Assembly: GCA_043782365.1 (NCBI GenBank)
Contig: JAYWAO010000593.1
Span: forward strand, 1-48,081
Source: Deltaproteobacteria bacterium
GTDB taxonomy: Bacteria > Myxococcota > Myxococcia > Myxococcales > 40CM-4-68-19
Length of the DNA: 48,081 nucleotides
Reading direction: 5' to 3'
Each line of letters starts with the position of its first letter. Within the stretch, counting starts at the first letter, position 1. The notes beneath the pieces are model-generated. The model was not told the origin of the DNA, searched no databases, and was given only the letters and a program-made list of their open reading frames with translations. The translations under genes and the position numbers were made by a program. Shown in pieces: positions 1,821 through 40,751 of the stretch.

Positions 1821-1828
1821 GTCGTCCC

Positions 1829-12680: not shown

Positions 12681-12747
12681 TCTAGAAGCCGACGCGCACG
12701 ACAAAGGTTGCCGGTCGTGCGTGCGTGATCGCGCCAGGGAGTTCGAG

Positions 12748-22501: not shown

Positions 22502-23121
22502 TTCTTCGTCTCCCAGGCGCCGCCCTCGAGCTGCACCTGGCCTCCGCAGATCACCTCGCCCAGGTGCGCCTTGCGCCACGCCTTCCGCACCTCGTCGAGC
22601 GTCGGCTGCTTCGCTGCGAGCCGCGCCGCGAGGGTGCGCCAGATCTGGAAGCGCCGCCGGTTCTCCCGCTCGAGCAGCCGCGCCTGGCGGCCCGCCGCGA
22701 TGGGCTCGGTGCAGGTGGCCGGGGTCTCGTCGAGCGTGCCGTCGAGCTTCTCGCCGATGCAGCGTCGCAGGAGCAGTTGGTCGAGCAGGTCGGCCTCGGT
22801 GGTCGCCTCCTCTTGCGCCAGCTGCTCGTCGCCCTTGCCCACGGGCACGCCCGCGGCCTCGAGCTGCCCGCGCGTGTAGGGCACCGGCCGCGCCGAGACG
22901 CCCGCCTGCTGCAGCTCTCCGGTCAGCGACGGGAACGAGCCCGAGGCCTGCTCCTCGAGCGCGGTCTTGCGGTCGGCGATGATCATCGGCGGCGCGGTGA
23001 TGCAAGCGCTCGCGAGCAAGAGGAGCGCGAGCGCGGGCAGCCCCTGCGCGCGCCTCGCGGTCGGGTCCTGCGGGAGCGCTTGCCTCGGCGCCTGCTTCGG
23101 GTCCTTCACCGGATCGTTCAT
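22495..23121 (-). CDS. ydbL: YdbL-like (DUF1318) lipoprotein with a roughly 110-aa N-terminal extension
   Basis: Lipobox LLLASAC. The C-terminus ...ERENRRRFQIWRTLAARLAAKQPTLDEVRKAWRKAHLGEVICGGQVQLEGGAWETKKC matches the DUF1318 pattern (E. coli YdbL). ATGA overlap with the upstream giant gene. Confidence 0.65.
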   Translation of the reverse strand: MNDPVKDPKQAPRQALPQDPTARRAQGLPALALLLLASACITAPPMIIADRKTALEEQASGSFPSLTGELQQAGVSARPVPYTRGQLEAAGVPVGKGDEQLAQEEATTEADLLDQLLLRRCIGEKLDGTLDETPATCTEPIAAGRQARLLERENRRRFQIWRTLAARLAAKQPTLDEVRKAWRKAHLGEVICGGQVQLEGGAWETKKC

Positions 23122-26100
23122 CGGGTCCCCTCTTCCTGGCTTGCCGCCGGTGCGGCGGATGGAGTCGTCTCGGGCTCGGGCGGCACGGGCCTGGCCAGGT
23201 ACCGCTCCAGCACGGGCCCGATCGCCGTCCCGCGGATCTCGTCGATGCGGACCGCGCTCGCCAGCCCGCCCAGCTCCAGGGCCAGCGTGGCGAAGCCATC
23301 GTGGAAGCCCATCCGCACGCTCTTCGGGTAGCCGAATTGCAAGCCCCGGCGCATCCGGTTGGCGGCGATGTCGGCGTGAAAAGGGTCATACAGGTCGAGC
23401 AGCCCGCGCAGGTGCGAGGTGCCCAGCCGCACCAGCTCGATGCGGCCCTCGAGCAAGCGGCGCTCGGGCCACAGCACCAGCGCCGCGTTGGCGTCGAGCC
23501 GCTCCTTCTCTCCTGCGGTGACCAGCCCGGTGACGGCGCCGCGGAAGGAGAGCTGGGTGTCCTCGGCCTGGCCGTCGATGAGGATCTGCCCGCTCACTTT
23601 TCCTTGCAGCAGCTCCAGCTCGAGCTGGTCGATCGCCACCAGGTTGCGGTCGATGCGCAGGTTGGCGGCGAGCGGCCCGAGCACGATGGTGCGCGGGGCC
23701 TCTGCCGTCGCCACCCCTTTCTTGGAGAGGTCGACCTCGATGCGCTGCGCGGTGACGAACGGAGTGTCCGCGGTGAACGGCTGCTGCTCGGCGAAGCGGA
23801 GCCGCGAGTAGGCGCTGGTGGTGGCGCCGAACACGCGCGTGAAGCCGCCGTTGTCGCCCAAGAGGAGGTCCTGCGCGACCGGGATGAACCCGTTGAGTCC
23901 CTTCACCGCCAGGCCTTGCGCCGGCATCGCCAGATCGACCTCCTCGAACTTGAGCCCCGCCGTCGCCCGCAGGTAGCTCAGGTCCCCAGACTCCACGCGG
24001 AACGGCACGGTCACGGTGCCCTTGCCGAGCGGGGCGCCGGCGCCGCTCGGGCTGCCGTTCACCGCGTCGAGCCGCTGCGAGAGCACGCCCTCGATGAGCA
24101 GGTTGCGCCGCCCCGGGATCAGGCTCCCCGCGAAGGCCCGCGCCAGCGACCTGGTGGCTGTCTTGAGATCGAGGTTCGGGTCGAGGGGCCCCAGGTCGAG
24201 GCCGCCGTGCAGGTCGAGCCGGGTGCCGCCGAGCGCGTTGGTGAAGGAGGCGCTCTCGATCCGCACCGACCCCTTGGCGTCGGCGCGGGCGGCGATGGCG
24301 AGCTCGACGTCGCCGAGCGGGTACTGCGGCGCCGCGTCTTGCACCAGCGAGGCCGCGGTGAACCCGGCCTTGGCCGTGGCGGTGCCCGTCTCCAGGTCTC
24401 CCTGGGAGTCCACCACCAGCGACGCGCCCAGCTTCTCGCCGCGGTACTTGTGACCCGAGGCCCGCGTGAGCAGCGCCGGCAGGTCGAGGCTCGCCTCGGC
24501 GTGCAGCTTCTTCGGGTCGGCCTGGGTCTGCAGGTGCAGCGTCAGGGCAGGCAGGACGGCGTGCAGGTCGCTCGCGCCGCCATAGTTGAGCCCGGTGACG
24601 GTGAAGTCGAGCGAGGTGGTCCCGCGGATGGCGGTCAGCGGCGCCGGCTCGAAGACGAACTTCGGCGGCAGGCCGGGCGTGTACTTCGCCACCACCGAGG
24701 TGAGCGCCCCCTCGGCGTGGGCCTTCACGGCGAGCGAGTCGAACCTGACGTGGTGCTTCGCGAGCGTGGCTGCCGGGAGCAGCACGCCCGCGAGGCCGAG
24801 GTGCTTGAAGCCGCCGTCCAGCTGGTAGGTGAGCCGCCTGGTCGGGGGATCGAACGCGACGCCCAGGCTGAGCTGGCCGTCGGGCCCGAGCACGCCGTCG
24901 CCCGCGAGCTTCACGTCGAGGCGCGGCTTGGAGAGATCGTAGCTGCCGCCGCACGAGAGCGTCTGCTTCCCCGCGCCGCCGCGGCCGTTGAGGCGCGGGT
25001 CCGCCAGCACCAGCGCGGCCTCGAAGGTGTGGCGCTGCAGCGTGCCGCGCGTCGAGAGCTTCAGCGCGGCCTCGCGGGTGGTGAAGTCGAGCCCGGGGCG
25101 TTGCACCGACAGCTTGGTGAGCGTGCCCAGGCTCTCCTGCTCGACGGTCATCGTCTGGCGCCGGTCGATGCCGCGGGCCCTCCCCTTGGTCTTCCACGAC
25201 AGCCCCGTCCCGGCCCAGGCGGCGCGCTCATTGGCTGGCAGCGCGCCGCGCAAGAGCTCCGAGAGCGGCCCCAGCTCGGCGGCGCTCGCGTCGAGCTCGA
25301 ACGCGACCTCACTGCCCTTGCGGTCGATCGCGGTCTCCACCTGCAGCGGGCCCAGCGCCAGGGTGGCGCGCAGCTTCAACTGCTGCGTCGGGTCGAGCGC
25401 GGTCAGCTCCAACGGCTCGACCTCGACCGTCAGCGACGCGGGCTGCGGCGCGAGGCGCGGACCGCCGCCGCCGTCTTCGATGCCCACCTTGCCCGTCGGC
25501 AGCTTGAAGACCGTGCGCGCGAGCGACTTGCCGTGCACCTGGGTGGCCAGCGCCACGCCCAGCCCGGTGGCCTGGGTCTTCTTCTTGCCCTGCGTCTGCG
25601 TCACCGCGGCGATCTTCCCTTCGAGCGCCACGGTCGCCTGCGTCTGCGCCGGGTGCCCCTGCGCGAAGCGGACGTCGCGCAGGCCCAGCGCGAGCTGCAG
25701 CCCCTCGACCGTGGCGACCGCGCCCTTCGCGCTCTGGCGGAGCTCGCCCAAGCCCATCGTCACCTCGCCGTCGAAGCGCTGCACCAGCGCCTGGCCGGTC
25801 GCCTCCTTCGCGCCCTGCGCCAGCACGCCGTCCACGCCCAGCGTGAGCTTGCGCAGCTCCACCAGGGCCAGCCCGCGCTGCACCAAGTGGGAGAGCGGCA
25901 TCGACGCGTGCACGTCGACCTTGCCGTCGGCGCGCGGCTTGAGCGTGGCCAGCAGCGCGAGGTCGTCCACTTCGAGCGCGGGCTTGTCGCCGGGACCTTG
26001 CGAGAGGCCCTGCAGCTTGCCCTCGAGCGTCGCGTCGCCACCGGCAGCGCGCATCGTCAGCGCCACCGCGCGCACCCGCGCTGGCACTGCTGGCGCGCCA

Positions 26101-27326
26101 GCCGGAGCGGAGTTCGCCTCGACAAAGGAAAGCGCCATCACCAACTGCAGCGCGCGGCCAGCGGCGATCGCGACCGCCTGGCCCGGGATGCGCGTCTCCG
26201 CCACCGGGCTGCCATCGGCGGCCTTGGCTGGCGCCACCGAGAGGTCGAACGTGCCCGTGCCCAGCTTGGCGCCGGGCGGCGCGAGGTCGGCGAAGCGCGA
26301 CAGCAGCAGGCCCAGGTCGGCGTGGCCTGACGCCGCGCGCAGCACGAGCCCCTGCTTCGCGTCGTCGTGCAGCTCCACCTCGGCCGAGAGCTTCGCCGCG
26401 CCGTCCACCAGCGAGAGCGCCTCGACGCGCGCGACCACCAGATCGTGCTCGGGCTCGAAGCCCAGATGCGTCCGCAGGCCGAGCAGGGGGCCCTCGGGCA
26501 GCGCGGGCGCGAGGTCGTGCTTCTTCACCGCGACCTCGAGGGTGACAAGGCAGTCGCGCGGCTTGCAGGCGAGGCCCAGCGCGGCCTCTAGCAAAAGCGA
26601 GCGCGCCGACCCGGCGACCTCCTGGCCTCCCGCGCCGAGCTCCGTGCGCACCACCTCGAGCGCGAGCGGCTTGCTCGTGGTGCCCGACTCGAAGACCGCG
26701 TCGAGGGCCCCGGCGCCCGCGAGCGCCTGGCCCGTCATCGCGAGCGTCCCGATGTCGAGGCGCTCGTACGCGGCGCCCGCCCGGGTCTTCAGCACGGTCA
26801 CGGTGGCGCCCTCGATGAGCAGCCGCTCGAGAGAGACCTGGGACTTCGGCAGGTACTTCTCGATCAGGTGCGCGAGCGGCGGCGTCGGCGGCGGCGGCCC
26901 GGTGATGGCGAGCCGCTGGGTGTTCCACCGCTCGAGCGAGCTCCCGCCGTGCTCGTCCTGGACGACCGCCAGCGCGAGCCCGCTCAGCTTCAGCTCGCCG
27001 AGTCTGGTGCCGAGCAGCGCTCCCACCGACCAGCCGACGTGCAGCTCCTTGATTGTGACCAGATTGGGGGCGACGGCCCGGTCGGCCGGCGCGGAGGGGA
27101 ACGTCACGTCGTAGAGCGACAGCCCGCCGGAGAGCGAGCCCTCGGCGCGGGCGTAGTCGAGGTCGATGCCGCCCCTGTCGTGCGCGGCGGCCCGGATGCG
27201 GCTGCGGAGCGGCGCGGAGTCGAGGTGGCTGAGGACCACGGAGGCCGTCACCACGGCGAGCAGGCCAACGAGCGCGAGCCCGCCGAGCGCAAAGGCAAGG
27301 ACACGCACCACGCGACGAGCGATCAC
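23118..27326 (-). CDS. Giant AsmA-like / YdbH-family membrane-anchored protein (about 1400 aa)
   Basis: ORF 23118..27386. I prefer GTG 27326 (VIARRVVRVLAFALGGLALVGLLAVV TM anchor, GGAGGGG 8 nt upstream) because the 20 codons after ATG 27386 use rare codons. Long beta-rich repetitive body. Operon context with a DUF1318 gene, as in E. coli ydbH-ynbE-ydbL. Confidence 0.6.
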   Translation of the reverse strand: MIARRVVRVLAFALGGLALVGLLAVVTASVVLSHLDSAPLRSRIRAAAHDRGGIDLDYARAEGSLSGGLSLYDVTFPSAPADRAVAPNLVTIKELHVGWSVGALLGTRLGELKLSGLALAVVQDEHGGSSLERWNTQRLAITGPPPPTPPLAHLIEKYLPKSQVSLERLLIEGATVTVLKTRAGAAYERLDIGTLAMTGQALAGAGALDAVFESGTTSKPLALEVVRTELGAGGQEVAGSARSLLLEAALGLACKPRDCLVTLEVAVKKHDLAPALPEGPLLGLRTHLGFEPEHDLVVARVEALSLVDGAAKLSAEVELHDDAKQGLVLRAASGHADLGLLLSRFADLAPPGAKLGTGTFDLSVAPAKAADGSPVAETRIPGQAVAIAAGRALQLVMALSFVEANSAPAGAPAVPARVRAVALTMRAAGGDATLEGKLQGLSQGPGDKPALEVDDLALLATLKPRADGKVDVHASMPLSHLVQRGLALVELRKLTLGVDGVLAQGAKEATGQALVQRFDGEVTMGLGELRQSAKGAVATVEGLQLALGLRDVRFAQGHPAQTQATVALEGKIAAVTQTQGKKKTQATGLGVALATQVHGKSLARTVFKLPTGKVGIEDGGGGPRLAPQPASLTVEVEPLELTALDPTQQLKLRATLALGPLQVETAIDRKGSEVAFELDASAAELGPLSELLRGALPANERAAWAGTGLSWKTKGRARGIDRRQTMTVEQESLGTLTKLSVQRPGLDFTTREAALKLSTRGTLQRHTFEAALVLADPRLNGRGGAGKQTLSCGGSYDLSKPRLDVKLAGDGVLGPDGQLSLGVAFDPPTRRLTYQLDGGFKHLGLAGVLLPAATLAKHHVRFDSLAVKAHAEGALTSVVAKYTPGLPPKFVFEPAPLTAIRGTTSLDFTVTGLNYGGASDLHAVLPALTLHLQTQADPKKLHAEASLDLPALLTRASGHKYRGEKLGASLVVDSQGDLETGTATAKAGFTAASLVQDAAPQYPLGDVELAIAARADAKGSVRIESASFTNALGGTRLDLHGGLDLGPLDPNLDLKTATRSLARAFAGSLIPGRRNLLIEGVLSQRLDAVNGSPSGAGAPLGKGTVTVPFRVESGDLSYLRATAGLKFEEVDLAMPAQGLAVKGLNGFIPVAQDLLLGDNGGFTRVFGATTSAYSRLRFAEQQPFTADTPFVTAQRIEVDLSKKGVATAEAPRTIVLGPLAANLRIDRNLVAIDQLELELLQGKVSGQILIDGQAEDTQLSFRGAVTGLVTAGEKERLDANAALVLWPERRLLEGRIELVRLGTSHLRGLLDLYDPFHADIAANRMRRGLQFGYPKSVRMGFHDGFATLALELGGLASAVRIDEIRGTAIGPVLERYLARPVPPEPETTPSAAPAASQEEGTR

Positions 27327-27536
27327 TGCGGCACCCCTCCGACCCAATTTCGGGCAGCAGCCCCGAGTATGCGAAGAACGTACCATGACGTAACGCGTCG
27401 CCGGCCGGAGGGCTCCATCGGGGGCGGGCCTCCTGCGTTGCGCCGGAATACGTTCGCTGAACGAGGCCGTGGCCAGCCAGCAGCGCGGCCAAGAGGAGGT
27501 CGAGCAGCCGCGCGCGGAGGGCGTCCCGTGCGCGGG

Positions 27537-28610: not shown

Positions 28611-29528
28611 ATGCGTCTGCCTCGGAGCCGGCTTCGCTTGAACTACCACCACCTCCACTACTTCTCCGCGGTGGCGCGGGCCGGGTCGGTGGTCCAGGCC
28701 GCCCGTGACCTCGGCGTCTCGCAGCCCACCATCAGCGCGCAGCTGCGCCTGCTCGAGGAGGCGCTCGGGGAGAAGCTGCTGCAGCGGCGCGGCCGCGGAC
28801 TGCGTCTGACCGAGATGGGCCTGCTCGTGCAGCGCTACGCCGAGGAGATCTTCCACCTCGGCGCCGAGCTGGAGGAGGCGGTGCGCGGCAGGCCCACCAG
28901 CGGGCCGCAGCGCTTCACGGTGGGCATCTCCGACTCCCTGCCCAAGCTCACCACGCTGCGCCTGCTGCAGCCCGCGCTGGAGGCGCAGCCTGCCTTCCGC
29001 CTGGTCCTGCGCATCGACAAGACGGCGCGCCTGCTGGCCGACCTCGCCACCCTCGGGCTCGACCTGGTGCTCGCCGACCAGCCGGCCCCGCCCGGCCTCG
29101 AGGTGAACGCCTTCAGCCACCTGCTCGGCGAGAGCGGCGTGGCGGTGTTCGGAGCGCCCGCGCTGGCCGACCGCTACCGGCGCGGCTTTCCCCGCTCCCT
29201 GCAGGGCGCGCCCTTCGTGCTGCCCTCGGCCGGCACCGCCCTGCGCCGGTCGCTCGACCAGTGGTTCACCGCCCGGCAGGTGCGCCCGCAGGTCGTCGCC
29301 GAGGCCGACGACCTGGGCCTCCTCCAGATCCTCGGCCAGCAGGGTCTGGGACTGTTTGCCGCGCCCGCGGTGGCAGCGGAGTTCATCAAGGCCCAGCATG
29401 GCGTCCGCACCCTCGGCGTGCTCTCGGGTGTGAAAGAGCGGTTCTACGCCCTCACCGTGGAGCGGCGGCTTCGCCACCCGGCGGCGGTCGCGATCCAGGC
29501 GGCGGCGCGGAGCGACCTCTTCGCGTGA
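28611..29528 (+). CDS. LysR-family transcriptional regulator (NhaR-like)
   Basis: MRLPRSRLRLNYHHLHYFSAVARAGSVVQAARDLGVSQPTISAQLRLLEEALG is the HTH region, followed by a LysR substrate-binding domain. ATG 28581 is an alternative start. Confidence 0.85.
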   Translation: MRLPRSRLRLNYHHLHYFSAVARAGSVVQAARDLGVSQPTISAQLRLLEEALGEKLLQRRGRGLRLTEMGLLVQRYAEEIFHLGAELEEAVRGRPTSGPQRFTVGISDSLPKLTTLRLLQPALEAQPAFRLVLRIDKTARLLADLATLGLDLVLADQPAPPGLEVNAFSHLLGESGVAVFGAPALADRYRRGFPRSLQGAPFVLPSAGTALRRSLDQWFTARQVRPQVVAEADDLGLLQILGQQGLGLFAAPAVAAEFIKAQHGVRTLGVLSGVKERFYALTVERRLRHPAAVAIQAAARSDLFA

Positions 29529-29615
29529 GGCGCGATGCCGCGGCGGCTCGGGCGCACTGGTTGCAACGCGCCCGCTGCAGCAGTCGCACGCAACCAATCC
29601 TCACGGAGGTGTCTC

Positions 29616-29963
29616 ATGCGCGGTTCCACGCTGTTCCTGCTCGCTGCCGGTACCCTGCTCCTCGCCATGCCCGCCCGGGCCGAAGTCGACAAGAAGATCG
29701 AGCGCACCTGGAAGGCCAAGTGCAGCTCCTGCCACGGCGCCGACGGCAAGGGCCAGACCGACACCGGCAAGAAGATGGGCGTCAAGGACTACACCACCGC
29801 CGAGTGGCAGAAGAGCCGCACCGACGCGCAGCTCAAGGAGGCGATCCTGAACGGCATCAACCGCGAGGAGGGCGGGAAGAAGCAGGAGATGGACGGCTAC
29901 CAGGGCAAGCTCGACGACCAGGTGGACGGGCTGATCGCGCTCGTGCGCGGCCTGAAGAAGTAA
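29616..29963 (+). CDS. Small periplasmic monohaem class-I cytochrome c
   Basis: ORF 29535..29963 trimmed to MRGSTLFLLAAGTLLLAMPARA (RBS GGAGG at 29605). Single CSSCH and a distal Met candidate (QEMDGY). Confidence 0.8.
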   Translation: MRGSTLFLLAAGTLLLAMPARAEVDKKIERTWKAKCSSCHGADGKGQTDTGKKMGVKDYTTAEWQKSRTDAQLKEAILNGINREEGGKKQEMDGYQGKLDDQVDGLIALVRGLKK

Positions 29964-30116
29964 CACTGTTGGTTCACGTCGTGCCGCGAGCCCGGACCGC
30001 CCAGCAGGCCCGGGTTCGCCGACCCGCAAGGCCTGCGTAAGTGTCTGACTGTTGCGCGCTCTCTGCGGACCTTCGTCAGAGTGGAAAAACACACGCCGCG
30101 CGGCGGGGTCCGATGG

Positions 30117-30449
30117 CTATCGCGACAGGTCGGCGCCCGGGATCCAGGCGGCCGCCCCGAAAGCCGCCGATGAAGCGCGCCTCGGCCACCTCCAGCACCC
30201 AGCGGGCCCGCCCGTTGCTGCTGCTGCTGCCAGAACGAAGAGGCTCGCGCGCGGATCGGCGAGGACATTCTTGGTGTGCTCGGCGAGCGCGCTGAAGGCG
30301 AAGAGCGGCGCTCCCCGCGGGGTCAGCGCAAACGGTGCGAGGGAGCCCATCGGCCACCCGGGCTGGTGGGATCGCCGCAAGGTCGAGAGCACGCCGTAGC
30401 GCGCGCCAGCGAGAAGGGACTGCGCGGCCTGTGCTGCGTCGGCGGGCAT
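30117..30449 (-). pseudogene. Decayed PNPOx-like/HugZ-family FMN-binding protein gene (internal deletion plus frameshifts)
   Basis: Frame 1 reads MPADAAQAAQSLLAGARYGVLSTL...PFALTPRGAPLFAFSALAEHTKNVLADPRASLFVL, then nonsense. The expected C-terminal motif appears split over two frames (WVLEVAEARFIGGF in one frame, GAAAWIPGADL in the other). About 55 aa of the family core is missing next to a (GCA)5 run at 30216-30230. Confidence 0.5.
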
Positions 30450-30604
30450 CGCTGCGCTCCGCTCTCCGAGTGGCTCCGAGGCCAATAGCGCGCGCCGCGA
30501 GGCCGCGTCCAACCAGCCGCAGCGGCAATGCACCGCAGCCACCGGCGGGGCGCCCCTCGATTGCGGCCTGCGATCTGCATAGGCGCGAGCGGAGGAGGTC
30601 TGCA

Positions 30605-31732
30605 ATGAGAACCACACCCTACGTGCTGCTCGCGCTCGCGCTCGGGGCCGCTCCCCTTGCGTCGCGCGCGGAGGAGCCCGCGCCCGCCGGGACGGTCTCC
30701 GCGACATCGACGCCCACCGCCGGACCGACGCCCGCCGCAGCGCTCCCCACCAACGCCACCGAGACCGAGAAGTGTCTGGTCTGCCACGGCAAGGACGCCG
30801 GTGAGCTGCTGCTGGAGTCCGGCGAGACCCTGAGCCTCGCGGTCGATCCCGCCGCGATGGCCGCCTCGGCCCACGGCCGCAAGGTGGTCTGCTCCGACTG
30901 CCACCAGGACCTGCTCGACGCCGAGACCCCGCACCGGAAGCTGCGCCTCGCCAGCAAGCGCGACTTCGCGATCCAATTCTCCGAGGGCTGCAAGAAGTGC
31001 CACGCGGCGAACTACACCGACACCCTCGACAGCGTGCACCGCGAGCAGATCACCAAGGGCAAGCGCACGGCTGCGGTCTGCTCCGACTGCCACGGCGCCC
31101 ACGACATCACGCCCGCCGCGGAGCCCCGCTCGAAGATCGCGCGGACCTGCGCCACCTGCCACGAGAAGATCTCCGCCGCCTATGTCGGCAGCGTGCACGG
31201 CAAGGCGCTCAGCACGGGCAATGAGGACGTGCCCACCTGCACCGACTGCCACCGCTCGCACGCCATCGCCGACGCGAGGGCGGGCGCGTTCCGGCTGAAG
31301 ACGCCCGAGACGTGCGGCAACTGCCACGCCAATGAGAAGCTGATGGGCAAGTACCAGCTCTCCACCAACGTGCTGCAGAGCTACCTCTCCGACTTCCACG
31401 GCACCACCGTGGCGATGCAGGCCGGCGAGGAGGGCGCGCAGCCGGTGGTGGCGCTCTGCACCGACTGCCACGGCGTGCACGACATCACCAGGGTGAGCGA
31501 CCCCAGCTCGCGGGTGATCAAGGCGAACCTGCTCGTCACCTGCAAGAAGTGCCACCCGGACGCGCGGGCCGACTTCCCGGCCTCGTGGCTCTCGCACTAC
31601 CAGCCTTCGCTGCAGAAGGCGCCGCTCGTCTTCCTCGTCAAGGCGGCCTACTGGTTCTTCATTCCCTTCATGATCGGCGGCCTGGCCCTGCAGATCGTGC
31701 TGCACCTCTGGCGCATGATCGTCAACCGGTGA
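30605..31732 (+). CDS. Nine-haem c-type cytochrome with signal peptide and C-terminal TM anchor (CbcL c-domain-like)
   Basis: ORF 30335..31732 trimmed to MRTTPYVLLALALGAAPLASRA (RBS GGAGGAGG). Nine CxxCH motifs: CLVCH, CSDCH, CKKCH, CSDCH, CATCH, CTDCH, CGNCH, CTDCH, CKKCH. C-terminal helix YWFFIPFMIGGLALQIVL. Confidence 0.85.
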   Translation: MRTTPYVLLALALGAAPLASRAEEPAPAGTVSATSTPTAGPTPAAALPTNATETEKCLVCHGKDAGELLLESGETLSLAVDPAAMAASAHGRKVVCSDCHQDLLDAETPHRKLRLASKRDFAIQFSEGCKKCHAANYTDTLDSVHREQITKGKRTAAVCSDCHGAHDITPAAEPRSKIARTCATCHEKISAAYVGSVHGKALSTGNEDVPTCTDCHRSHAIADARAGAFRLKTPETCGNCHANEKLMGKYQLSTNVLQSYLSDFHGTTVAMQAGEEGAQPVVALCTDCHGVHDITRVSDPSSRVIKANLLVTCKKCHPDARADFPASWLSHYQPSLQKAPLVFLVKAAYWFFIPFMIGGLALQIVLHLWRMIVNR

Positions 31733-31739
31733 GGACCCA

Positions 31740-32495
31740 ATGACCACTTCAACGATCGCTCCCACCAGCAGGCCGGGCGCGATTCCCAAGAGCCATCCAT
31801 TGGACGCCTATCTCGTCCGCTTCAACCTGTGGCAGCGCACCGAGCACTTCCTGGTGATGACCGTCTTCACCTTGCTCGTCGTCACCGGCATGCCGCAGAA
31901 GTACTCGACGGCGGGCTTCTCCGCCGCGGTGGTCCACTTGTTCGGCGGGATCACCGCGACCCGCAACGTCCATCGGGTGGCGGGGTTCGTCTTTGCATTC
32001 CTGATGGCACTCCACCTCGGCCTCGTCATCTGGAAGACCGCCACCAAGCGCTTCGAGCTGCTCACCATGGTGCCCGACCAGAAGGACTTCAGGGACGCCC
32101 TCCAGACGCTGCGCTACTACGTCGGCCTGGAGAAGGCGCACGCGCGGTTCGATCGCTTCGACTACCGGCAGAAGTTCGAATACTGGGGAATGCTCGCCGG
32201 CTCGCTGATCATGGTGCTGACCGGGCTGGTGCTCTACTTCCCCGCCCTGGTGGCGCGGCTCCTGCCCGGGCAGCTGATCCCGGTGGCGAAGGTGGCCCAC
32301 AGCAACGAGGGGCTGCTGGCGACGCTGGTGATCATCGTCTGGCACATCTACAACGCCCACCTGAACCCCGACGTCTTCCCCTTCGACCCCAGCATCTTCA
32401 CGGGCAAGATCAGCCGCGAGCGGATGGAGAAGGAGCACCCGCTGGAGCTGGAGCGGCGCGAAGAGGCCGGGCGCGCGCACCCGCCGGAGCGGTAG
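31740..32495 (+). CDS. FdnI/HydC-type (cytochrome b561-like, PF01292-type) membrane b cytochrome
   Basis: 251 aa with 4 TM helices and conserved His residues (RTEHF, NVHRV, HSNE, WHIYNAH). Starts 7 nt after the nine-haem gene. Confidence 0.85.
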   Translation: MTTSTIAPTSRPGAIPKSHPLDAYLVRFNLWQRTEHFLVMTVFTLLVVTGMPQKYSTAGFSAAVVHLFGGITATRNVHRVAGFVFAFLMALHLGLVIWKTATKRFELLTMVPDQKDFRDALQTLRYYVGLEKAHARFDRFDYRQKFEYWGMLAGSLIMVLTGLVLYFPALVARLLPGQLIPVAKVAHSNEGLLATLVIIVWHIYNAHLNPDVFPFDPSIFTGKISRERMEKEHPLELERREEAGRAHPPER

Positions 32496-32498
32496 GCC

Positions 32499-33515
32499 GT
32501 GGCCCGCTACTGCGGGCAGGCCATCATCGATGCGCTGGTGGCGGCGGTGGTGGTGGAGCTCCTGATCCGGGCCTGGCGCGAGGCCGCGCCTGGACAGCGG
32601 ATCCGGCTGCGGCAGTTGGTGCTCGCGCTCGCGCTGGTGGCGGTGCCGCTGCTCGACCGCCTCCTGCCGCAGCGGCGCGAGGAGTGGTTCGAGGAGCGGG
32701 TGGCGCTGCTCACCACCCGCCACTGGGCGGAGCTGACGGTGGGCGGCGTGGGTCTGCCTCTGCTCTTCCTCGGCGCGCTCAGCGCGGGCGGGCTCGCGCT
32801 GTTCCTCGCCGACCTGATCCCCTTCCTGCGGCAGCTGCGATCCGGCGAGGGCGCCGCTTCGAGGTCGATGGTCGCGTCGCTCACCGGGGCGGCGGCCGCG
32901 GACTCCGGACAGGCGGCGAGTCCCGACGGCGCCCGCGTCCAGCGCGAGCTGGCGCGCCTGTGCAGCCAGAGCGGTCGCGCGGCCCCGCGCCTGACGCTGA
33001 GCGACGAGCGCGCGCCGATCCTCCTCTGCCGCGGCGTCCGCGCACCGGAGATCCTCGTCTCGCGCGGCGCCCTCGCCCTGCTCGACGACGCGGAGCTTCG
33101 AGGGGCGCTGGCCCACGAGCTCGCCCACCTGGACCGCAGGGACCCCGCGTGGAGCTGGGTGCTGCTCGGCGTCCGCGCGCTGCAGGCCTTCAACCCGGTG
33201 GTGCAGGTCGTGGTGCGGGCGCTCGCGCAGGACGCGGAGCGGCAGGCCGACGACCTCGCCGCGCTCGCCACCGGCGACCGCCTCGCGCTCGCCTCCGCCA
33301 TCGTCAAGCTCTCCCGGGGCTCCGCGGCCGGCAGCGGCGAGCTCCTCTGGGGGCAGCTCCTGGCGCGAGCCCGCGCGCGCTCTCGCGTCGCGTCGATCGA
33401 GGGGCGGTGCCGCCGGTTGCTGGGTCCCGTCTGTCCGGAGCCCGCGCCCCACGCGGGCCTGCGGCTCGCGGCGGCAGGGCTCTCGCTGCTCGGTCTCTTG
33501 ATGTTCGTGGTCTAG
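32499..33515 (+). CDS. BlaR1/MecR1-type M56 family membrane metalloprotease-like protein
   Basis: GTG start 3 nt after the cytochrome b stop. TM helices. HELAHLDRRDP matches the M56 HExxH...D signature. Terminal TM helix. Confidence 0.7.
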   Translation: MARYCGQAIIDALVAAVVVELLIRAWREAAPGQRIRLRQLVLALALVAVPLLDRLLPQRREEWFEERVALLTTRHWAELTVGGVGLPLLFLGALSAGGLALFLADLIPFLRQLRSGEGAASRSMVASLTGAAAADSGQAASPDGARVQRELARLCSQSGRAAPRLTLSDERAPILLCRGVRAPEILVSRGALALLDDAELRGALAHELAHLDRRDPAWSWVLLGVRALQAFNPVVQVVVRALAQDAERQADDLAALATGDRLALASAIVKLSRGSAAGSGELLWGQLLARARARSRVASIEGRCRRLLGPVCPEPAPHAGLRLAAAGLSLLGLLMFVV

Positions 33516-33531
33516 GAAGGAGGAGGCGCCC

Positions 33532-34092
33532 ATGGCGGCAGCGACGCAGAGCATGGGACGCGACCTCACCTCGCTGGCCCTGGTGCTGGCGCTGGTGGCG
33601 GGTGGCCTGCGCCTGCTCGACACGCTGCCGCAGCGGCTCGCCGAGCTCACCGAATACAGGGGCGGCCGGCCGTTCGCGCAGATCTCCGAGGTGGAGCGCC
33701 GGCTGGGCGAGCGCCTGGCGCTGCCCGCGTACTTCCCGCAGACGCTGCGCTGGCCGCCGGCGCGGATCCGCGTCGCGGGCGCGCGCCCCGCGCAGGTGCT
33801 GCTCGCCTTCGACGCCGCGACCGGGAGCGGCGAGCGGCTGCTCTTCGCGCAGAGCGTGGGCGGCGTCGAGGAGCCGACTGCGCCGCTCTGGCCCGACGGC
33901 GTGCTGCTCGACTCCGCGGGCGTGGGCCTGCAGCAGACCACCGGCGTGCTCGAGCGGCTGCTCGCGCCCGATGGACGGATCTGGCACCAGGTGCGCTGGG
34001 AGCGGTGGGGAAGGCTGCTGGTGCTGCGGTCCGCGGGCGGCCCAGAGGAGCTGATGACGCTGGCGCGCAGCGTGCGGCGGGAGGGGCCATGA
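33532..34092 (+). CDS. Membrane-anchored hypothetical protein (weak DUF4367-like layout)
   Basis: 186 aa. RBS GGAAGGAGGAGG. N-terminal TM helix. High GC3. Its stop overlaps the kinase ATG (ATGA). Confidence 0.5.
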   Translation: MAAATQSMGRDLTSLALVLALVAGGLRLLDTLPQRLAELTEYRGGRPFAQISEVERRLGERLALPAYFPQTLRWPPARIRVAGARPAQVLLAFDAATGSGERLLFAQSVGGVEEPTAPLWPDGVLLDSAGVGLQQTTGVLERLLAPDGRIWHQVRWERWGRLLVLRSAGGPEELMTLARSVRREGP

Positions 34093-35990
34093 GCACCCTG
34101 CCGGGCGCGAGCAATGGCAATCGCAACGTCGACGGCGCGTCGCGGCCGCCCGGCCACCGCATCCTGGCGAGAGTATTACTCTTGGTGGCGGTCGGCATGC
34201 TGGGTCCGCTCACCGTGCTGGGCTGGGCCGGCTGGACCAGCCGCGACGAGCTCGCGCGGCACGAGGTGGCCGAGCGGGGCGCAGCCGCTGAGTTCATCGC
34301 GCTGCGCGTGCAGGACAAGCTGGCCGCGGGCCTCGATGCGCTGGAGGCCGCCGCGCGCGAGGGCCTGCCGGGCGCCGCCGACGCCGAGCAGCTGGCGACG
34401 CACCGCCACGCCGCGCTGCGCGAAGCGTTCGTCCGCAACCGGCCGCTCTTCGCCGAGGTGCTCCGGCTCGACGCCGAGGGCCGCGTGGTCGGGCGAGAGC
34501 CGGAGGGCGGCGGGCCGCTCGACGGGCAGCGGCTGCTCGCCGAGGCGCGGCGGGTCGATCACCCCGAGATCACCGATCTCCTCGCCGAGGAGGGCGGCGC
34601 GCGCCGCGCCTGGGCGGTGGTCCCCGTACACACCTGGGACGGCAAGCTCGTCGGCGTGGTGCTCGGCGCGATCGATCCGCGCGCGCCCCGTCTCGCCGGG
34701 ATCCTCAAAGGCGCGCTGCCGCTCCCGGGCGGCGCGCTGGAGCTCGTCGACGGCGCAGGCACGGTGGTGACCGGCACCGACCACGCGCACGTCCTCGCGG
34801 CGAGCGACCACCCGCTCCTGATCGCCGGGAGCATCCAGCAGCGGCGGTCCTCGGCGAACACCTGCAGCGCCTGCCACACCAGCCAGATGGGGGGCGTCGC
34901 GGGCGCCCGCTCCGGGCTCTTCGTGGTGGCCCCGCTCCCGGCCGCGCGGTGGGCCGTCACGCTGCGCGAGCCCGAGCCGGAGGCGCTGTCGTTCACCCGC
35001 GCGCTCTCGCACAACCTGCTCGGGCTACTCCTCTTGATGCTCGCGATCGCGCTGCTCTTCGCCTGGGGCGCGGCCGCCAGCGTGACGCGCCCGCTGGCGG
35101 CGCTGACCGCCGCCGCCGAGCGGCTGACCGCCGGCGCGCTCGCGGAGCCGATCCCCGCGCTCGACGGAGACGAGGTGGGCCGCCTGGGGCAGGCGCTGGA
35201 GCGGATGCGCCAGTCCCTCAAGCAGTCGCTCGAGCGGGTGGAGGCCGCCAACGCCGGCCTCGAGCTGCGGGTGGCCGAGCGGACGGGTGCGCTCGAGCAG
35301 AAAGGCCGCGAGCAGAAGGCCGATCAAGCGCGGGTGCGCCTCCTGCTCGGCAAGGTGATCGGCGCGCAGGAGGACGAGCGCCGCCGGGTCGCGCGCGAGC
35401 TGCACGACGAGACCAGCTCCAGCCTCGCCGCGGTGGTGATGAAGGTCCAGGCGGCGGTGAAGGTCTCCCCGCCCGGCGAGCTGCGCGCGCGGCTCGAGGA
35501 GGCGCAGGCGCTCGCGGTGCACACGCTCGACGAGGTGCACCGCCAGATCTGCGGGCTGCGCCCGTCGGTGCTCGACGACCTGGGCCTGCAGTCGGCGCTC
35601 CGCTGGTGCGCGGAGACCTCGCTGGAGGCGCGCGGCATCGCCGTGCGCACCGAGTTCTCCGGGCTCGGCGCGCGGCTCCCGGCCCACCTCGAGACGGTGG
35701 TCTTCCGCGTCGCCCAGGAGGCGATGACGAACATCGCCAAGCACGCGCAGGCCGAGAGCGTGCTGATCCAGGCGGCGGTGAGGGACGGCGAGCTGACCCT
35801 CGAGATCGAAGACGACGGCAGGGGCTTCGTCCCGGCGCAGCTCGCGGTGCCAGGCAGTGAGGGGCGCGGCTTTGGCCTCCTGGGCATGCGCGAGCGCGTC
35901 GAGATGCTCGGCGGTACGCTGCGGCTCGACTCCGCGCCAGGGCAGGGGACGCACCTGTCGCTCACGTTGCCCGTGCCCGAGCCGCGCTAG
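34089..35990 (+). CDS. Sensor histidine kinase (HisKA_3/NarX-class) with a Cache-like periplasmic domain carrying a CxxCH motif
   Basis: ORF 34005..35990 trimmed to MSTLPGA. Two TM helices flank a roughly 280-aa periplasmic domain containing CSACH. HAMP domain, H-box ELHDETSSSL, N-box EAMTNIAKHA, DDGRGF, GFGLLGMRERV. Confidence 0.9.
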   Translation: MSTLPGASNGNRNVDGASRPPGHRILARVLLLVAVGMLGPLTVLGWAGWTSRDELARHEVAERGAAAEFIALRVQDKLAAGLDALEAAAREGLPGAADAEQLATHRHAALREAFVRNRPLFAEVLRLDAEGRVVGREPEGGGPLDGQRLLAEARRVDHPEITDLLAEEGGARRAWAVVPVHTWDGKLVGVVLGAIDPRAPRLAGILKGALPLPGGALELVDGAGTVVTGTDHAHVLAASDHPLLIAGSIQQRRSSANTCSACHTSQMGGVAGARSGLFVVAPLPAARWAVTLREPEPEALSFTRALSHNLLGLLLLMLAIALLFAWGAAASVTRPLAALTAAAERLTAGALAEPIPALDGDEVGRLGQALERMRQSLKQSLERVEAANAGLELRVAERTGALEQKGREQKADQARVRLLLGKVIGAQEDERRRVARELHDETSSSLAAVVMKVQAAVKVSPPGELRARLEEAQALAVHTLDEVHRQICGLRPSVLDDLGLQSALRWCAETSLEARGIAVRTEFSGLGARLPAHLETVVFRVAQEAMTNIAKHAQAESVLIQAAVRDGELTLEIEDDGRGFVPAQLAVPGSEGRGFGLLGMRERVEMLGGTLRLDSAPGQGTHLSLTLPVPEPR

Positions 35991-36012
35991 CCGGGCGCTG
36001 AAGGAGGAGACG

Positions 36013-36669
36013 ATGGACAAGATCCGCGTGCTGGTCGCTGACGACCACGGCCTCTTGCGCGAGGGCATCCGCGCGCTGCTCGCGACCTCGGCGGACATCC
36101 TGGTGGTGGCCGAGGCCGCCGACGGCCGCGCCGCGGTGGACCTCTGCAAGCTGCACGATCCCGACGTGGTGCTGATGGACATCGCCATGCCCGGACTGGG
36201 CGGCCTGGAGGCGACGCTCGAGCTCAAGCGCGAGCACCCGCGCACCAGGGTGCTGGTGCTCACCCAGTACGAGGACCGCGAATATGTCAGACGCTTCCTC
36301 AAGGCGGGCGTCTCGGGCTTCGTGCTGAAGAAGACCGCGGGCTCCGCGCTCGCCGACGCCATCCGCTCGGTGGCGCGGGGCGGGCTGGTGCTCGACCCCA
36401 GCGTCGCGCGCGAGGCGATGGAGGACTCGGCGCGCCCGCGCCCGAGCGGCGAGCGCGACCTCTATGAGACGCTCACCGACCGCGAGAAGCAGGTGCTCAA
36501 GCTGGTGGCCGAGGGCCGCAGCAACAAGGAGGTGGCGGGGACGCTCGGCATCAGCGTGAAGACGGCGATGTCCCACCGCGAGCACGCGATGGAGAAGCTC
36601 GACCTGCACAACCGGACCGACCTGGTGCGCTTCGCGCTGCAGAAGGGGGTCCTCCCGCCCGAACGGTGA
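36013..36669 (+). CDS. NarL/FixJ (LuxR-type HTH) response regulator
   Basis: MDKIRVLVADDH...VVLMDIAMPG receiver domain. LTDREKQVLKLVAEGRSNKEVAGTLGISVKTAMSHREH HTH. RBS AAGGAGGA. Confidence 0.95.
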   Translation: MDKIRVLVADDHGLLREGIRALLATSADILVVAEAADGRAAVDLCKLHDPDVVLMDIAMPGLGGLEATLELKREHPRTRVLVLTQYEDREYVRRFLKAGVSGFVLKKTAGSALADAIRSVARGGLVLDPSVAREAMEDSARPRPSGERDLYETLTDREKQVLKLVAEGRSNKEVAGTLGISVKTAMSHREHAMEKLDLHNRTDLVRFALQKGVLPPER

Positions 36670-36852
36670 CCCGCGGCAGGCAACCGCAGGAATGCGTGGC
36701 TGCTCGTCGATCCAGGGACTCTTGCCCGGCCTTCCTCCGGTGCGCAGCCTCTCCAACCCGGGATTCAATCCGATAGCCCTGCGATTGACTCCTGATTCCA
36801 TCAAACTGCGCGCGCCTTACTCTTGCTTCAACCACGAAACAGGAGGCACGCC

Positions 36853-37305
36853 ATGGAGCGCTTCAACGGTGGAACGAAGGTTGGCGGCGGTTACTACTTC
36901 AACACCAGCACCTGGGAGTTCACGACCATCACCGGGGACTTCGGCACCCTGCCCGGCGACGCGCGGGTCAACTACTTCCACACCCCCTTGCTGGCGCTCT
37001 TCGTCGCGGCGCCCGTGATGGGCCTCGCGTTCGCGATCTTCCTCCCCTTCATCGGCTTCGCGCTGCCGCTCTACGCCCTCGGGCGCGCGGTGCTCAGCAC
37101 CGGCAAGGAGCTGGCGCACGAGGTAGCGGCCACCGTCACGCCGCAGTGGCACCCCGGCGAAGCCTACCTGGCCGGCAAGCCCGAGGCGGAGAAGGGAACG
37201 GCGCGCGGCGCGGAGAAGGCAGCGGGGCAGGACCCGGGCGCGCTCGACGGGCTGCAGGGCGAGATCGCCGCCCGCCGGGAGCAGGAGAAGGGCGAGAAGA
37301 AGTAA
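36853..37305 (+). CDS. Hypothetical membrane protein
   Basis: ORF 36823..37305 trimmed to MERFNGGTKVGGGYYFN (RBS AGGAGG at 36841). High GC3. One or two TM helices and a charged C-terminal tail. Confidence 0.6.
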   Translation: MERFNGGTKVGGGYYFNTSTWEFTTITGDFGTLPGDARVNYFHTPLLALFVAAPVMGLAFAIFLPFIGFALPLYALGRAVLSTGKELAHEVAATVTPQWHPGEAYLAGKPEAEKGTARGAEKAAGQDPGALDGLQGEIAARREQEKGEKK

Positions 37306-37356
37306 GACTCGCGCTCCGCGCGGCAGCCGCCGCGTTCGCAGGAGACCGCGCCGCCC

Positions 37357-37374
37357 AGGGGCCGCGCGGCCTCT
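37357..37374. terminator. GC-rich palindromic hairpin between convergent genes
   Basis: AGGGGCC-GCGC-GGCCTCT. The core GGCCGCGCGGCC is a 12-bp palindrome. Weak evidence. Confidence 0.25.
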
Positions 37375-37381
37375 GACGTTT

Positions 37382-37897
37382 CTACTCCGTGCGCACGATG
37401 CAGAGCACGCCCACCCGTTGCGGGTCGAGCGCGGCCAGCCACGCCTGCAGCTGCCGCCACGCCGAGAAGATCGCCAGCACCGCGGACTCATCGGTCCCGC
37501 CGATCTGCTCGCGGACCTTCGCGCCGATGTCCTCCTGGTCCATCTTGTGCTCCCGCAGCCGCGTCAAGAGCTCCTTGGCGCCCTGCGGGTCGAAGACGGC
37601 CGCGGTGGTGGTCGTGGTGGAGGCGCCCGCGAAGCCCTGGTCGGAGAAGAGCGAGGAGAACCCGCGGGTCTGCAGCAGCCGGTCGAGCATCGAGAACGCC
37701 AGCCCCGAGCCCTCGTACTGCGAGTGCAGCGTGGCCTTGGCAGTGAGGAACGGCAGCAGGTCGTCCTCTACGACCGTGCGCTTCTTGGAGAAGAAGAGCC
37801 GCTTCTCGCTGATCTCGCGCTTGCGGGGCACCGTGGCCTCGTGCAGCTCGAAGAGGAGCGCGCCGGGCAGCAAGTAGAACTCAGCGATGGCGGCCAT
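37382..37897 (-). CDS. Hypothetical cytoplasmic protein (possibly DUF1877/YfbM-like)
   Basis: 171 aa with strong GC3 bias. The resemblance of the N-terminus (MAAIAEFYLL) and C-terminus to YfbM-type proteins is by eye only. Confidence 0.55.
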   Translation of the reverse strand: MAAIAEFYLLPGALLFELHEATVPRKREISEKRLFFSKKRTVVEDDLLPFLTAKATLHSQYEGSGLAFSMLDRLLQTRGFSSLFSDQGFAGASTTTTTAAVFDPQGAKELLTRLREHKMDQEDIGAKVREQIGGTDESAVLAIFSAWRQLQAWLAALDPQRVGVLCIVRTE

Positions 37898-39718: not shown

Positions 39719-40540
39719 CTACGGCTTGACCACCGTGTTGCCCGCCAGCGTCACCGCGGTCTGCGCGAGCAGGCGGCCGTTCGCGGTCGCGCCGGTCTTC
39801 AGCGTGATCGAGGTCTGCGAGAGGATGACGCCCTCCAGGTGCGCGGTGGTCCCGATGTCCACGACGCCGAACACCTGCCAGACGATGTTCTGCGGGAGCG
39901 CGCCGCCGGAGAGCACCACCCGCGCCGCCGACGCCTGGGTGATGCCGCCCGCGATCTGGAAGATCCAGGTGTCGGTCGCGCTCCCTGTCAGCGTCACGTT
40001 GGTGGAGATGTTCACCGTGTTCGACCACTTGTAGAGGCCCGCGGGAAGCGTCAGCCCGCCCAGGTTGCCCGCGGCGAGCTCGGTGTGGTCGGGGGTCACC
40101 CGGCCGGCGGCGTCGGTGTAGGCCGTCTGCATGTCGCCGATGGCGGTGGTCAGGTTCGAGGGCGTCGGCGCCGCATAGTCGGACGCATAGACGTTGCCCG
40201 TTACCTGCGGCGAGGTGGAGGCCGCGCCGGCGGTGGGCAGCGTCAGCGTGAAGCCCGTGATGAAGCTGGCGGCCGCAGGGCTCAGGCCGATGTTGCCGGT
40301 GATGGCGGAGGTCGGCACGTTTGAGACCGACGACTTCGCCAGGATGACGTAGTTGGCGGAGGTCCCGAGCGAGACCGGCGAGGGGCCGTGGCCGCCCGCG
40401 CCGCCCGTCCCGGAGCCCGCGCCTGGCGTGGTCGGCGAGACATCCGGGCCGGCAGAGTCGGTGCCGCAGGCGGCGAGGGAGCCGGCGGCGAGCAGCGCGG
40501 CGGCGAGGCGGATCAGCGAGCGGCAGTCAGGTCGAATCAT
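39719..40540 (-). CDS. DUF3494 'ice-binding-like' beta-solenoid lipoprotein
   Basis: ORF 39719..40657 trimmed to MIRPDCRSLIRLAAALLAAGSLAACG (RBS AGGAGG). LGTSANYVILAKSSVSNVPTSAITGNIGLSPAAASFITGF is the family signature. Confidence 0.75.
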   Translation of the reverse strand: MIRPDCRSLIRLAAALLAAGSLAACGTDSAGPDVSPTTPGAGSGTGGAGGHGPSPVSLGTSANYVILAKSSVSNVPTSAITGNIGLSPAAASFITGFTLTLPTAGAASTSPQVTGNVYASDYAAPTPSNLTTAIGDMQTAYTDAAGRVTPDHTELAAGNLGGLTLPAGLYKWSNTVNISTNVTLTGSATDTWIFQIAGGITQASAARVVLSGGALPQNIVWQVFGVVDIGTTAHLEGVILSQTSITLKTGATANGRLLAQTAVTLAGNTVVKP

Positions 40541-40751
40541 GGTGGCTCCTCCTGGTGCCACCGGAATCCGATGGCTGCGGCGCCGGGCGAACCGCCCGGG
40601 CTGCGGAGGAGGGCTCGTGCACCGGGCGTGCCGTCGCCGCGACCCGGCAGCCGTCACTCTGCGCGCTGCGCCTCGACGGCGCCCACGGGAGCGTCCCTCG
40701 AACGTTCGGGGCGGGCCAAGGGGTGTCGACCGAGCCTGCCGCGAGACCCTG

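Follow-up and report, generated by a model that had tools for sequence, protein, structure and literature searches.

In a 48,081-nucleotide (nt) stretch of DNA from a Deltaproteobacteria bacterium assigned to the Myxococcota (GenBank assembly GCA_043782365.1, contig JAYWAO010000593.1; the whole stretch is called the window below), we analyzed a cassette of genes encoding a nine-haem cytochrome c (c9), a b-type cytochrome (cytb), an M56-family membrane metalloprotease (M56), an anchored protein of 186 amino acids (aa; unk186), a sensor histidine kinase (HK), a response regulator (RR) and a 150-aa protein (d150). Judged from sequence comparisons, the cassette is horizontally shuffled yet conserved and self-contained, and is built around an inner-membrane bc-type cytochrome. 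In our preferred reading, to which we give a probability of roughly 55%, c9 and cytb would form a module linking quinone and periplasm, their own HK/RR pair would control this module as well as d150, and M56 and unk186 would add an optional layer that acts via the d150 tail. What appears to be undescribed is the conserved combination of a nine-haem split bc-cytochrome, a HisKA_3/NarL pair, a sensor-less and BlaI-less M56 protease with its partner, and the d150 family. All the domain families except unk186 and d150 are known, and the bc-cytochrome type has been characterized in Geobacter. The initial annotation of this DNA was aware of no described system with such a gene composition, and a full-text literature search aimed at this combination likewise found no paper describing it.

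The c9 protein has a signal-like N-terminus, nine CxxCH motifs and a C-terminal hydrophobic helix spanning approximately residues 339 to 365; motif count and hydropathy thus agree with its earlier description as a secreted nine-haem protein with a C-terminal membrane helix. It matched multihaem cytochrome c models in Pfam and NCBIfam, and of the candidates scored more than 5000 were homologues at E ≤ 1e-5. When 27 homologues (51 to 87% identical) were aligned, all nine CxxCH motifs were invariant, and so were nine additional periplasmic histidines, with zero invariant methionines. Nine invariant distal histidines and no invariant methionine fit a protein with nine bis-His haems. All haems of c9 are probably of this kind; the protein would then conduct electrons like a wire and lack an open catalytic haem, as reported for the periplasmic domain of CbcL (PMC9129911). 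The terminal helix was strongly conserved (IPFMIGGLxLQIxLHLWRVVVNR), and at residue 367, in the anchor, 57 of 81 homologues have His and 21 have Asp. The nearest solved structure was that of MtrF (E = 5e-4), and none was close.

For cytb, a match to PF01292 was obtained with E = 1.8e-12 and 47.8 bits (gathering threshold, 30.1), and the protein could be aligned to Escherichia coli FdnI (PDB 1kqf chain C) with E = 6e-8. In this alignment, H36, H78, H187 and H202 of cytb coincide with the FdnI haem ligands H18, H57, H155 and H169, and conservation of each of the four across 76 homologues was 90% or higher. The Pfam match and the four aligned ligands support the assignment of cytb as a four-helix b cytochrome of the FdnI/HydC type, as originally proposed. 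FdnI is also a four-helix dihaem b protein, and its C-terminal G-K-x-S...E-H-P motif aligns with cytb as well; its partner, however, is a molybdo/FeS enzyme, whereas that of cytb is a multihaem cytochrome c. Since the scores of cytb lie far under the NCBIfam equivalog cut-offs for FdnI (55 versus 116 bits) and HydC, the protein is, on profile evidence, a relative and not an orthologue of either.

Paralogous split c/b pairs found elsewhere had 7, 9, 11 or 13 CxxCH motifs, and every one of them had the anchor His. In one case, c and b parts were fused in a single open reading frame (ORF) that carried 11 CxxCH motifs before the b part and was colinear with c9 followed by cytb. By these comparisons, cytochromes of the c9/cytb kind are a superfamily of variable haem number. 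Tandem paralogous split pairs were also seen 5' of the c9 orthologue in five loci (L023, L026, L028, L043 and L070), and in L023 a seven-haem pair stands at the head of the cassette and the nine-haem pair at its end.

Two Geobacter cytochromes offer the closest comparison. In CbcL (Cbc1, GSU0274), nine haem-c sites precede the six helices of a HydC/FdnI-type dihaem b domain (PMC6295460), the haems of its periplasmic domain are all bis-His (PMC9129911), and its b-haem histidines have been placed singly in the helix that joins the c and b parts and in each of the two helices after it, with a pair in a later helix (2021 preprint). Nine bis-His c haems and a HydC/FdnI-type b part after the c part are also what c9 and cytb present, and, with the c9 anchor counted as the first helix, the same histidine pattern is given by His367 of c9 and His36, His78 and the pair His187 and His202 of cytb. 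CbcL differs in being one polypeptide with six helices, where the window has two genes with one (c9) and four (cytb) helices, and in its anchor His, for which about a quarter of the c9 family has Asp. In addition, the CbcL literature that we consulted describes no dedicated kinase/regulator, M56, unk186 or d150 beside cbcL. In the second relative, CbcBA (Cbc5, GSU0593-0594), the c subunit has seven haems and a His-bearing anchor at its C-terminus, and a separate four-helix b subunit is encoded directly after it (2021 preprint). Two hypothetical proteins and a response regulator are encoded in the same operon, which is tightly regulated by the sigma-54 activator BccR.

CbcBA therefore resembles the window pair in that the c gene is separate from the b gene and precedes it, the c subunit is anchored by a C-terminal His helix, the b subunit has four helices and the operon includes a response regulator gene along with two genes for hypothetical proteins. 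On the other hand, CbcA has seven haems, compared with nine in c9 (invariant in the 27 homologues). CbcB has been described with three haem histidines, the fourth being supplied by the c subunit, whereas cytb has all four FdnI positions. The cbcBA operon is under sigma-54 BccR, in contrast to a cassette with a NarL-type regulator, and Pfam searches detected no Sigma54_activat domain near the cassette in the window. No M56 or unk186 has been described in the cbcBA operon. The sequence of the window pair is thus best described as the architecture of CbcBA with the haem count and histidine pattern of CbcL, both Geobacter proteins being compared by description. The initial annotation had called the pair a split CbcL; the haem count and histidine pattern uphold the CbcL part of that name, while a split c-then-b arrangement had already been characterized as Geobacter CbcBA. 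A degenerate pattern taken from an unreliable optical character recognition of the CbcL sequence gave no match in metagenomes, and a literature search for CbcL in Nitrospira, Acidobacteria and Chloroflexi returned nothing relevant.

The conservation of the cassette was assessed in a locus scan using one genome per species, which yielded at least 582 loci with c9; the best 80 were analyzed, and their ORFs were searched with the six window proteins from c9 to RR. These 80 loci came from Myxococcota, Acidobacteriota, Chloroflexota, Nitrospirota, Tectomicrobia, Dadabacteria, Binatia and Bdellovibrionota. Wherever the contig permits, c9 and cytb were adjacent in all 80. Forty-five loci (8 from Anaerolineae and 37 others) were fully covered, i.e., their contigs extend 2.5 kb or more upstream and 5.5 kb or more downstream. 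Among the 37, RR was found in 36 and HK in 35, followed by M56 (25), d150 (25) and unk186 (23 to 24). The gene order varied, from c9-cytb-M56-unk-HK-RR in Myxococcota and Acidobacteriota through M56-unk-(d150)-c9-cytb-HK-RR in Nitrospirota to HK-RR-d150-c9-cytb in many Chloroflexota. Because the genes are kept together despite this shuffling, they are likely to be functionally linked. A neighbourhood not conserved in relatives had been set beforehand as an outcome that would count against the cassette; the families instead recur over at least eight phyla. Two cultured carriers were found, Anaeromyxobacter terrae SG22 (locus L057) and Anaeromyxobacter paludicola (AP025592.1).

The HK protein has two membrane helices enclosing a 266-residue periplasmic domain, followed by HAMP, HisKA_3 and HATPase_c domains, and its His439 and catalytic boxes were conserved. 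RR combines a receiver and a GerE domain (PF00072, E = 3.5e-28; PF00196, E = 4.2e-19), with D10, D11, D56 and K106 conserved in 50 homologues and a strongly conserved helix-turn-helix. Domains and phosphorylation residues accordingly confirm the proposed pairing of a sensor kinase, overlapping the preceding gene by ATGA, with a NarL-type regulator. RR scored below every NCBIfam equivalog cut-off, and in NCBIfam neither protein was an equivalog of NarX/NarQ/NarL or of another named system. The periplasmic domain of HK matched dCache_1 weakly (E = 0.0015); the match of the orthologue in locus L091 was listed without the weak mark. Single CxxCH motifs in periplasmic sensor domains are known from the haem-c chemoreceptors GSU0582 and GSU0935 of Geobacter and from DcrA of Desulfovibrio, and HK resembles them in being a transmembrane signalling protein with one such motif (CSACH) in its periplasmic domain. 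Those domains are single PAS-like ones, however, while that of HK is dCache-like, and 41% of HK orthologues do without the haem motif. Haem-based sensing by the window HK is plausible, with CSACH as the candidate haem site. The label of haem-c sensor kinase, given to it earlier, therefore suits the window protein, which has the motif, better than the family, in which only 27 of 46 orthologues carry a CxxCH.

For M56, PF05569 was matched with 47.6 bits (gathering threshold, 31), with a weaker match to Peptidase_M48. Residues H206, E207, H210 and E247 were at least 90% conserved in 44 homologues and align with H201, E202, H205 and E242 of BlaR1 (PDB 8exp); the catalytic residues, on which the protease assignment had been made to depend, are thus intact, with HELAH and Glu247 matching BlaR1. 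By hydropathy, helices at residues 5 to 23, 35 to 53 and 79 to 97 are followed by a 222-residue loop containing the active site and by a helix at 320 to 338 that ends the protein. M56 shares with BlaR1 and MecR1 the N-terminal membrane zinc-protease domain, with HExxH and a downstream Glu and the same layout of helices and loop. It differs from BlaR1 in having no C-terminal penicillin-binding sensor domain, since it ends at the last helix, and further in being accompanied by the anchored unk186 and co-varying with the tail of d150. A gene for a BlaI/MecI/CopY-type repressor was found neither in the window cassette nor in annotated relatives. The best NCBIfam matches of M56 were HtpX models (E = 3.6e-13; 49 bits, compared with a cut-off of 412).

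Where present, unk186 lies directly 3' of M56, with 38 unk186 matches for 45 M56 matches, and its family (356 representatives) is made up of nearly exclusively stand-alone proteins of 170 to 200 aa. An M56-unk186 fusion, sought as a Rosetta-stone link, occurred in 0 of the 80 loci. The AlphaFold model of unk186 (predicted local distance difference test score [pLDDT], 88) consists of a membrane helix and an antiparallel beta-sheet domain. The N-terminal helix of the model and the lack of a family match (none in Pfam or NCBIfam, with Pfam searched even at E ≤ 10) are in line with its initial designation as an anchored protein of unknown family. By sequence and gene order, unk186 is an obligate M56 neighbour from an undescribed family. 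DUF4367 had been suggested for it, and at E ≤ 10 no profile match to this family was found either. A DUF4367 or RseB-LolA-like identity was accordingly rejected, the fold matches having E values of 0.012 or higher and template modeling scores of 0.36 or lower.

The initial annotation had presented the cassette as a set of six genes; all six are real, and a seventh conserved gene, d150, had been overlooked. It lies beside the cassette in 35 of the 80 loci, directly 5' of c9 in Chloroflexota, Nitrospirota and Dadabacteria, and divergent, after the regulator, in Acidobacteriota and A. paludicola. None of 51 members had a Pfam match, all database homologues are annotated as hypothetical, and no fold match was found in the PDB. 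AlphaFold (pLDDT 79) models d150, a putative small membrane protein of an undescribed family, as a four-strand N-terminal beta domain, a long helix, a disordered stretch and a C-terminal helix; a hydrophobic stretch of the long helix is kinked and has conserved Pro and Gly residues (P54, G57, P65 and G68). The sole sharp difference between cassettes with and without M56 was in this protein, namely, the motif W-x-P-G-E-A-Y-L and the tail beyond it. The motif was present in 22 of 22 genome loci with M56 and in 1 of 12 genome loci with adequate context that lack M56 (absent from 11; Fisher P = 4e-8, not corrected for phylogeny). Acidobacteriota and Chloroflexota each include loci of both states. 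The motif also occurred in each of the 10 complete M56 cassettes from a separate metagenome set; in two of these it ends in M instead of L. It falls within the stretch that AlphaFold models as disordered, as expected of a docking or cleavage site. Because its tail co-varies with M56, we propose d150 as a partner or substrate of this BlaI-less protease, to which the sequence data point.

From these observations we infer the following. The C-terminal helix of c9 would pack against the four helices of cytb, and the resulting complex would exchange electrons between quinones and the periplasm, like CbcL and CbcBA of Geobacter. Transfer could run in either direction, by quinol oxidation as in Geobacter or by quinone reduction from periplasmic donors as in FdnI. 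The dCache kinase, putatively haem-c bearing in the window, and the NarL-type RR would most likely respond to a redox or ligand cue in the periplasm by switching transcription of the cytochrome genes and d150. In the optional layer, unk186 would serve as the sensing part working with the sensor-less M56, for which the d150 C-terminal tail is the likely partner or substrate. The initial annotation had coupled the expression or turnover of the conduit to regulated proteolysis; such a coupling is conceivable, and the one observation bearing on it is the co-variation of M56 with the d150 tail. A more specific version is tentative and, in our view, less likely than not: the W-x-P-G-E-A-Y-L tail of d150 would be the substrate or docking partner of a two-piece, BlaI-less receptor-protease made of M56 and unk186, and its cleavage or binding would tune either the HisKA_3/NarL system, as LiaF does for LiaS, or the bc-cytochrome. 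If true, a periplasmic signal would gate a quinone-linked conduit by regulated proteolysis. M56 proteases would then be wired in a new way, and respiration would be gated by a new route, in many soil and sediment phyla.

Several results weigh against the preferred reading. About one-third of cassettes lack M56-unk186, and in Anaerolineae c9-cytb is retained alone (8 of 8 fully covered loci), which implies that the pair can function without the other genes. With a CxxCH in 27 of 46 HK orthologues and the segment deleted in the other 19, haem-based redox sensing would not be a general mechanism of these kinases. Motif-bearing tandem d150 pairs also stand alone, with no cassette within 10 kb, and genome loci of Anaeromyxobacteraceae have M56 with no d150 within 8 kb; the tie between M56 and d150 is therefore non-exclusive. 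The modelled topology of d150 is ambiguous, such that its tail may meet the M56 active site or unk186, and unk186 itself had no significant fold match in the PDB, with weak matches only to PsbP/DcrB and RseB/MucB. Finally, a palindromic operator shared by c9 and d150 was sought in 117 upstream regions, which gave only lineage-specific GC-rich repeats.

Among other explanations, the cytochrome pair could itself be a sensor, c9-cytb reporting the redox state of quinone or periplasm to HK while RR controls genes elsewhere. There is precedent in the cytochrome TorC, which feeds back on the periplasmic domain of the kinase TorS; as in the cassette, a multihaem cytochrome gene lies beside a kinase gene. 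The CxxCH in the periplasmic domain of HK (in the window and 27 orthologues) would suit this role, as would the presence of two sensory modules, HK and M56-unk186, beside one redox module, and across the loci no electron donor or acceptor gene is conserved with c9-cytb. We nevertheless consider it unlikely, given that 19 of the kinases have no haem motif, that the characterized relatives CbcL and CbcBA are respiratory enzymes, that the Anaerolineae pairs without a nearby kinase suggest an autonomous respiratory role, and that nine haems plus a dihaem b subunit would be a large investment for a sensor. Somewhat less probable still is a response to envelope or redox stress, in which HK/RR would induce a quinol-fed periplasmic electron sink that reduces harmful oxidants or metals, and M56 would act in HtpX-type quality control, removing membrane cytochrome that is damaged or unassembled. 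Bis-His multihaem cytochromes are promiscuous reductases, the cassette is found in lineages known as aerobes, such as Nitrospira and Vicinamibacteria, and unk186 weakly resembles the stress sensors RseB/MucB. The ranking of HtpX models first in NCBIfam and the additional Peptidase_M48 match also speak for quality control; yet the HtpX score is far under its equivalog cut-off, Pfam ranks M56 above M48, the fold matches of unk186 are non-significant, and the co-variation of M56 with the d150 tail is easier to explain by a dedicated partner than by a general role of this kind.

The initial annotation had further put forward c9-cytb as the quinol dehydrogenase for NapAB, in place of NapC or NapGH. 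NapA is genuine (1829-4690, minus strand; NCBIfam NapA, 1317 bits) and a dihaem NapB-like ORF follows it, no NapC or NapGH was found in the 48-kb window, and the other window ORFs with CxxCH hold one or two motifs, so that no tetrahaem NapC-type cytochrome is among them. The distance of 26 kb, the opposite strand and the absence of linkage (0 of the 80 cassette loci had a NapA homologue within 8 kb) led us to reject the link, which we regard as very improbable. Hyp and unrelated genes lie between napAB and the cassette, the cassette has its own regulator, which is not a NarX/NarQ equivalog, and NapC or NapGH may lie elsewhere, the visible part of the genome being 48 kb. The cassette leaves nitrate reduction in the source organism unexplained. 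That the genes are unrelated neighbours in a compact genome, brought into one operon by coincidence, would be compatible with the failure to identify a promoter, terminator or operator; this is effectively refuted by the recurrence of the families together, in rearranged order, from Myxococcota to Binatia, and its probability is close to nil.

Bc-cytochromes of the CbcL/CbcBA kind set the redox potentials of Geobacter respiration, and how they are switched is partly known. A closely related nine-haem c/dihaem b pair is widespread beyond metal reducers, in hundreds of species-level genomes, almost always with its own kinase and regulator and often with a BlaI-less protease and two unannotated families. 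The cassette could serve as a genomic marker for metagenome-assembled genomes that is better defined than "multihaem cytochrome". It is tractable, being carried by the cultured A. paludicola and A. terrae, and it provides a testable hypothesis for the role of sensor-less M56 proteases.

The window has a G+C content of 72%, and the six ORFs from c9 to RR lie on the plus strand with high third-position G+C. The ORF check and independent gene calls, which recovered the same six genes on identical metagenome contigs, confirmed the six genes first described, at the same positions, on one strand and with gaps of -4 to 22 nt (Table 1). A GGAGG-like (Shine-Dalgarno-like) sequence lies 5' of each of the six gene starts. 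Because of the tight spacing and these sequences, c9 to RR are suggested to be one transcription unit.

Table 1. Positions of the cassette genes, their upstream regions and two short motifs in the window.
Feature	Position (nt)	Strand	Description
c9	30605-31732	+	375 aa; ATG start, preceded by GGAGGAGG
cytb	31740-32495	+	251 aa; 7-nt gap after c9
M56	32499-33515	+	338 aa; GTG start; 3-nt gap after cytb
unk186	33532-34092	+	186 aa; 16-nt gap after M56
HK	34089-35990	+	633 aa; ATGA overlap with unk186 (-4)
RR	36013-36669	+	218 aa; 22-nt gap after HK
d150	36853-37305	+	150 aa; 183 nt 3' of RR; seventh cassette gene
c9 upstream region	30450-30604	+	candidate promoter/operator and GGAGGAGG ribosome-binding site
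d150 upstream region	36670-36852	+	183 nt, non-coding; candidate regulated promoter or leader
CSACH of HK	34863-34877	+	residues 259-263, periplasmic loop
W99-x-P-G-E-A-Y-L106 motif	37147-37170	+	d150 residues 99-106

The region upstream of c9 separates it from a divergent PNPOx-like gene (30117-30449, minus strand) and was partly conserved in a relative with 86% identity. The 183 nt upstream of d150 had a mean identity of 73% over three relatives whose c9 is 63 to 86% identical, and carry TCAATC-N12-GATTGA. The region may serve as a promoter, as an operator or as an RNA leader. The consensus fold of the leader (alifold) was computed from three sequences only and gave no clear structure call, and a search of Rfam over 29900-37400 returned a chance microRNA match only, with none in the d150 leader. 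No sigma-70-like promoter was found in 29400-37500, where terminator matches were at background. The 8-mer CCTGCGAT is common to the c9 and d150 upstream regions; with four occurrences in the window, it is too weak to call.

Immediately 5' of the cassette, the PNPOx-like gene is preceded by a gene for a monohaem cytochrome c (29616-29963, plus strand, 115 aa). Both are kept in the closest relative (L090), and among the 80 loci the cytochrome c was found in 3 and the PNPOx-like gene in 0; on this distribution, the two genes probably lie outside the cassette. Further conserved neighbours were sought by all-against-all clustering of the ORFs of the loci. Apart from overlapping-frame artefacts and lineage synteny, which made up most of the output, this gave a multihaem gene of NapC-like type and a block of NrfC, NrfD, GCV_H and c7 genes in Anaeromyxobacteraceae. 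In A. paludicola (AP025592.1, 565220-585783), the cassette directly follows this block, which comprises a sigma-54 regulator (approximately 5 kb upstream of the cassette), an NrfC-like FeS protein, NrfD, two membrane proteins with GCV_H domains and a cytochrome c7, a supercluster that recalls Geobacter cbcEDCBA with bccR. The NrfC/NrfD/GCV_H/c7 block also lies 5' of c9 in other Anaeromyxobacteraceae loci.

The NapC-like gene encodes a multihaem cytochrome of approximately 560 aa with a NapC/NirT-like N-terminus and was seen near c9-cytb in eight loci (including L062, L066 and L075), located 3' of cytb in two Anaerolineae (L062 and L066) and 5' of c9 in others. It may be a local redox partner in Anaerolineae. 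In a relative with 68% identity (L092), genes for two multihaem cytochromes and a 419-aa protein of unknown function (113-4084, minus strand) are divergent from c9; they are possibly a porin-cytochrome conduit, and as such a lone hint that outer-membrane electron transfer may be involved. More distant d150 homologues adjoin NrfC/NrfD modules with sigma-54 two-component systems. Short relatives of d150 (118 aa; L087 and L088, 8001-8357) were found near NrfC/NrfD, GCV_H and a HAMP kinase/sigma-54 pair on Terriglobia-like contigs. The d150 family may thus accompany several kinds of regulated quinone-linked modules.

Elsewhere in the window, 1323-4690 and 4875-6326 (minus strand) hold napA and then the dihaem NapB-like ORF, with a gene for an NnrS-like membrane protein before napA. 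A hydrogenase maturation cluster (6873-15024) includes a NiFe-hydrogenase-like fragment (6873-8027), HypD (8488-9666), a HypB/CobW-like GTPase (11787-12680) and HypF (12721-15024), with an enoyl-CoA hydratase-like ORF (9836-11572) interleaved. Two ORFs of approximately 1400 aa each (19085-27386, minus strand) have no Pfam family listed on the identical contigs. Finally, a gene unrelated to the cassette (39719-40657, minus strand) encodes a secreted protein for which the identical contigs list an ice-binding-like domain (PF11999).

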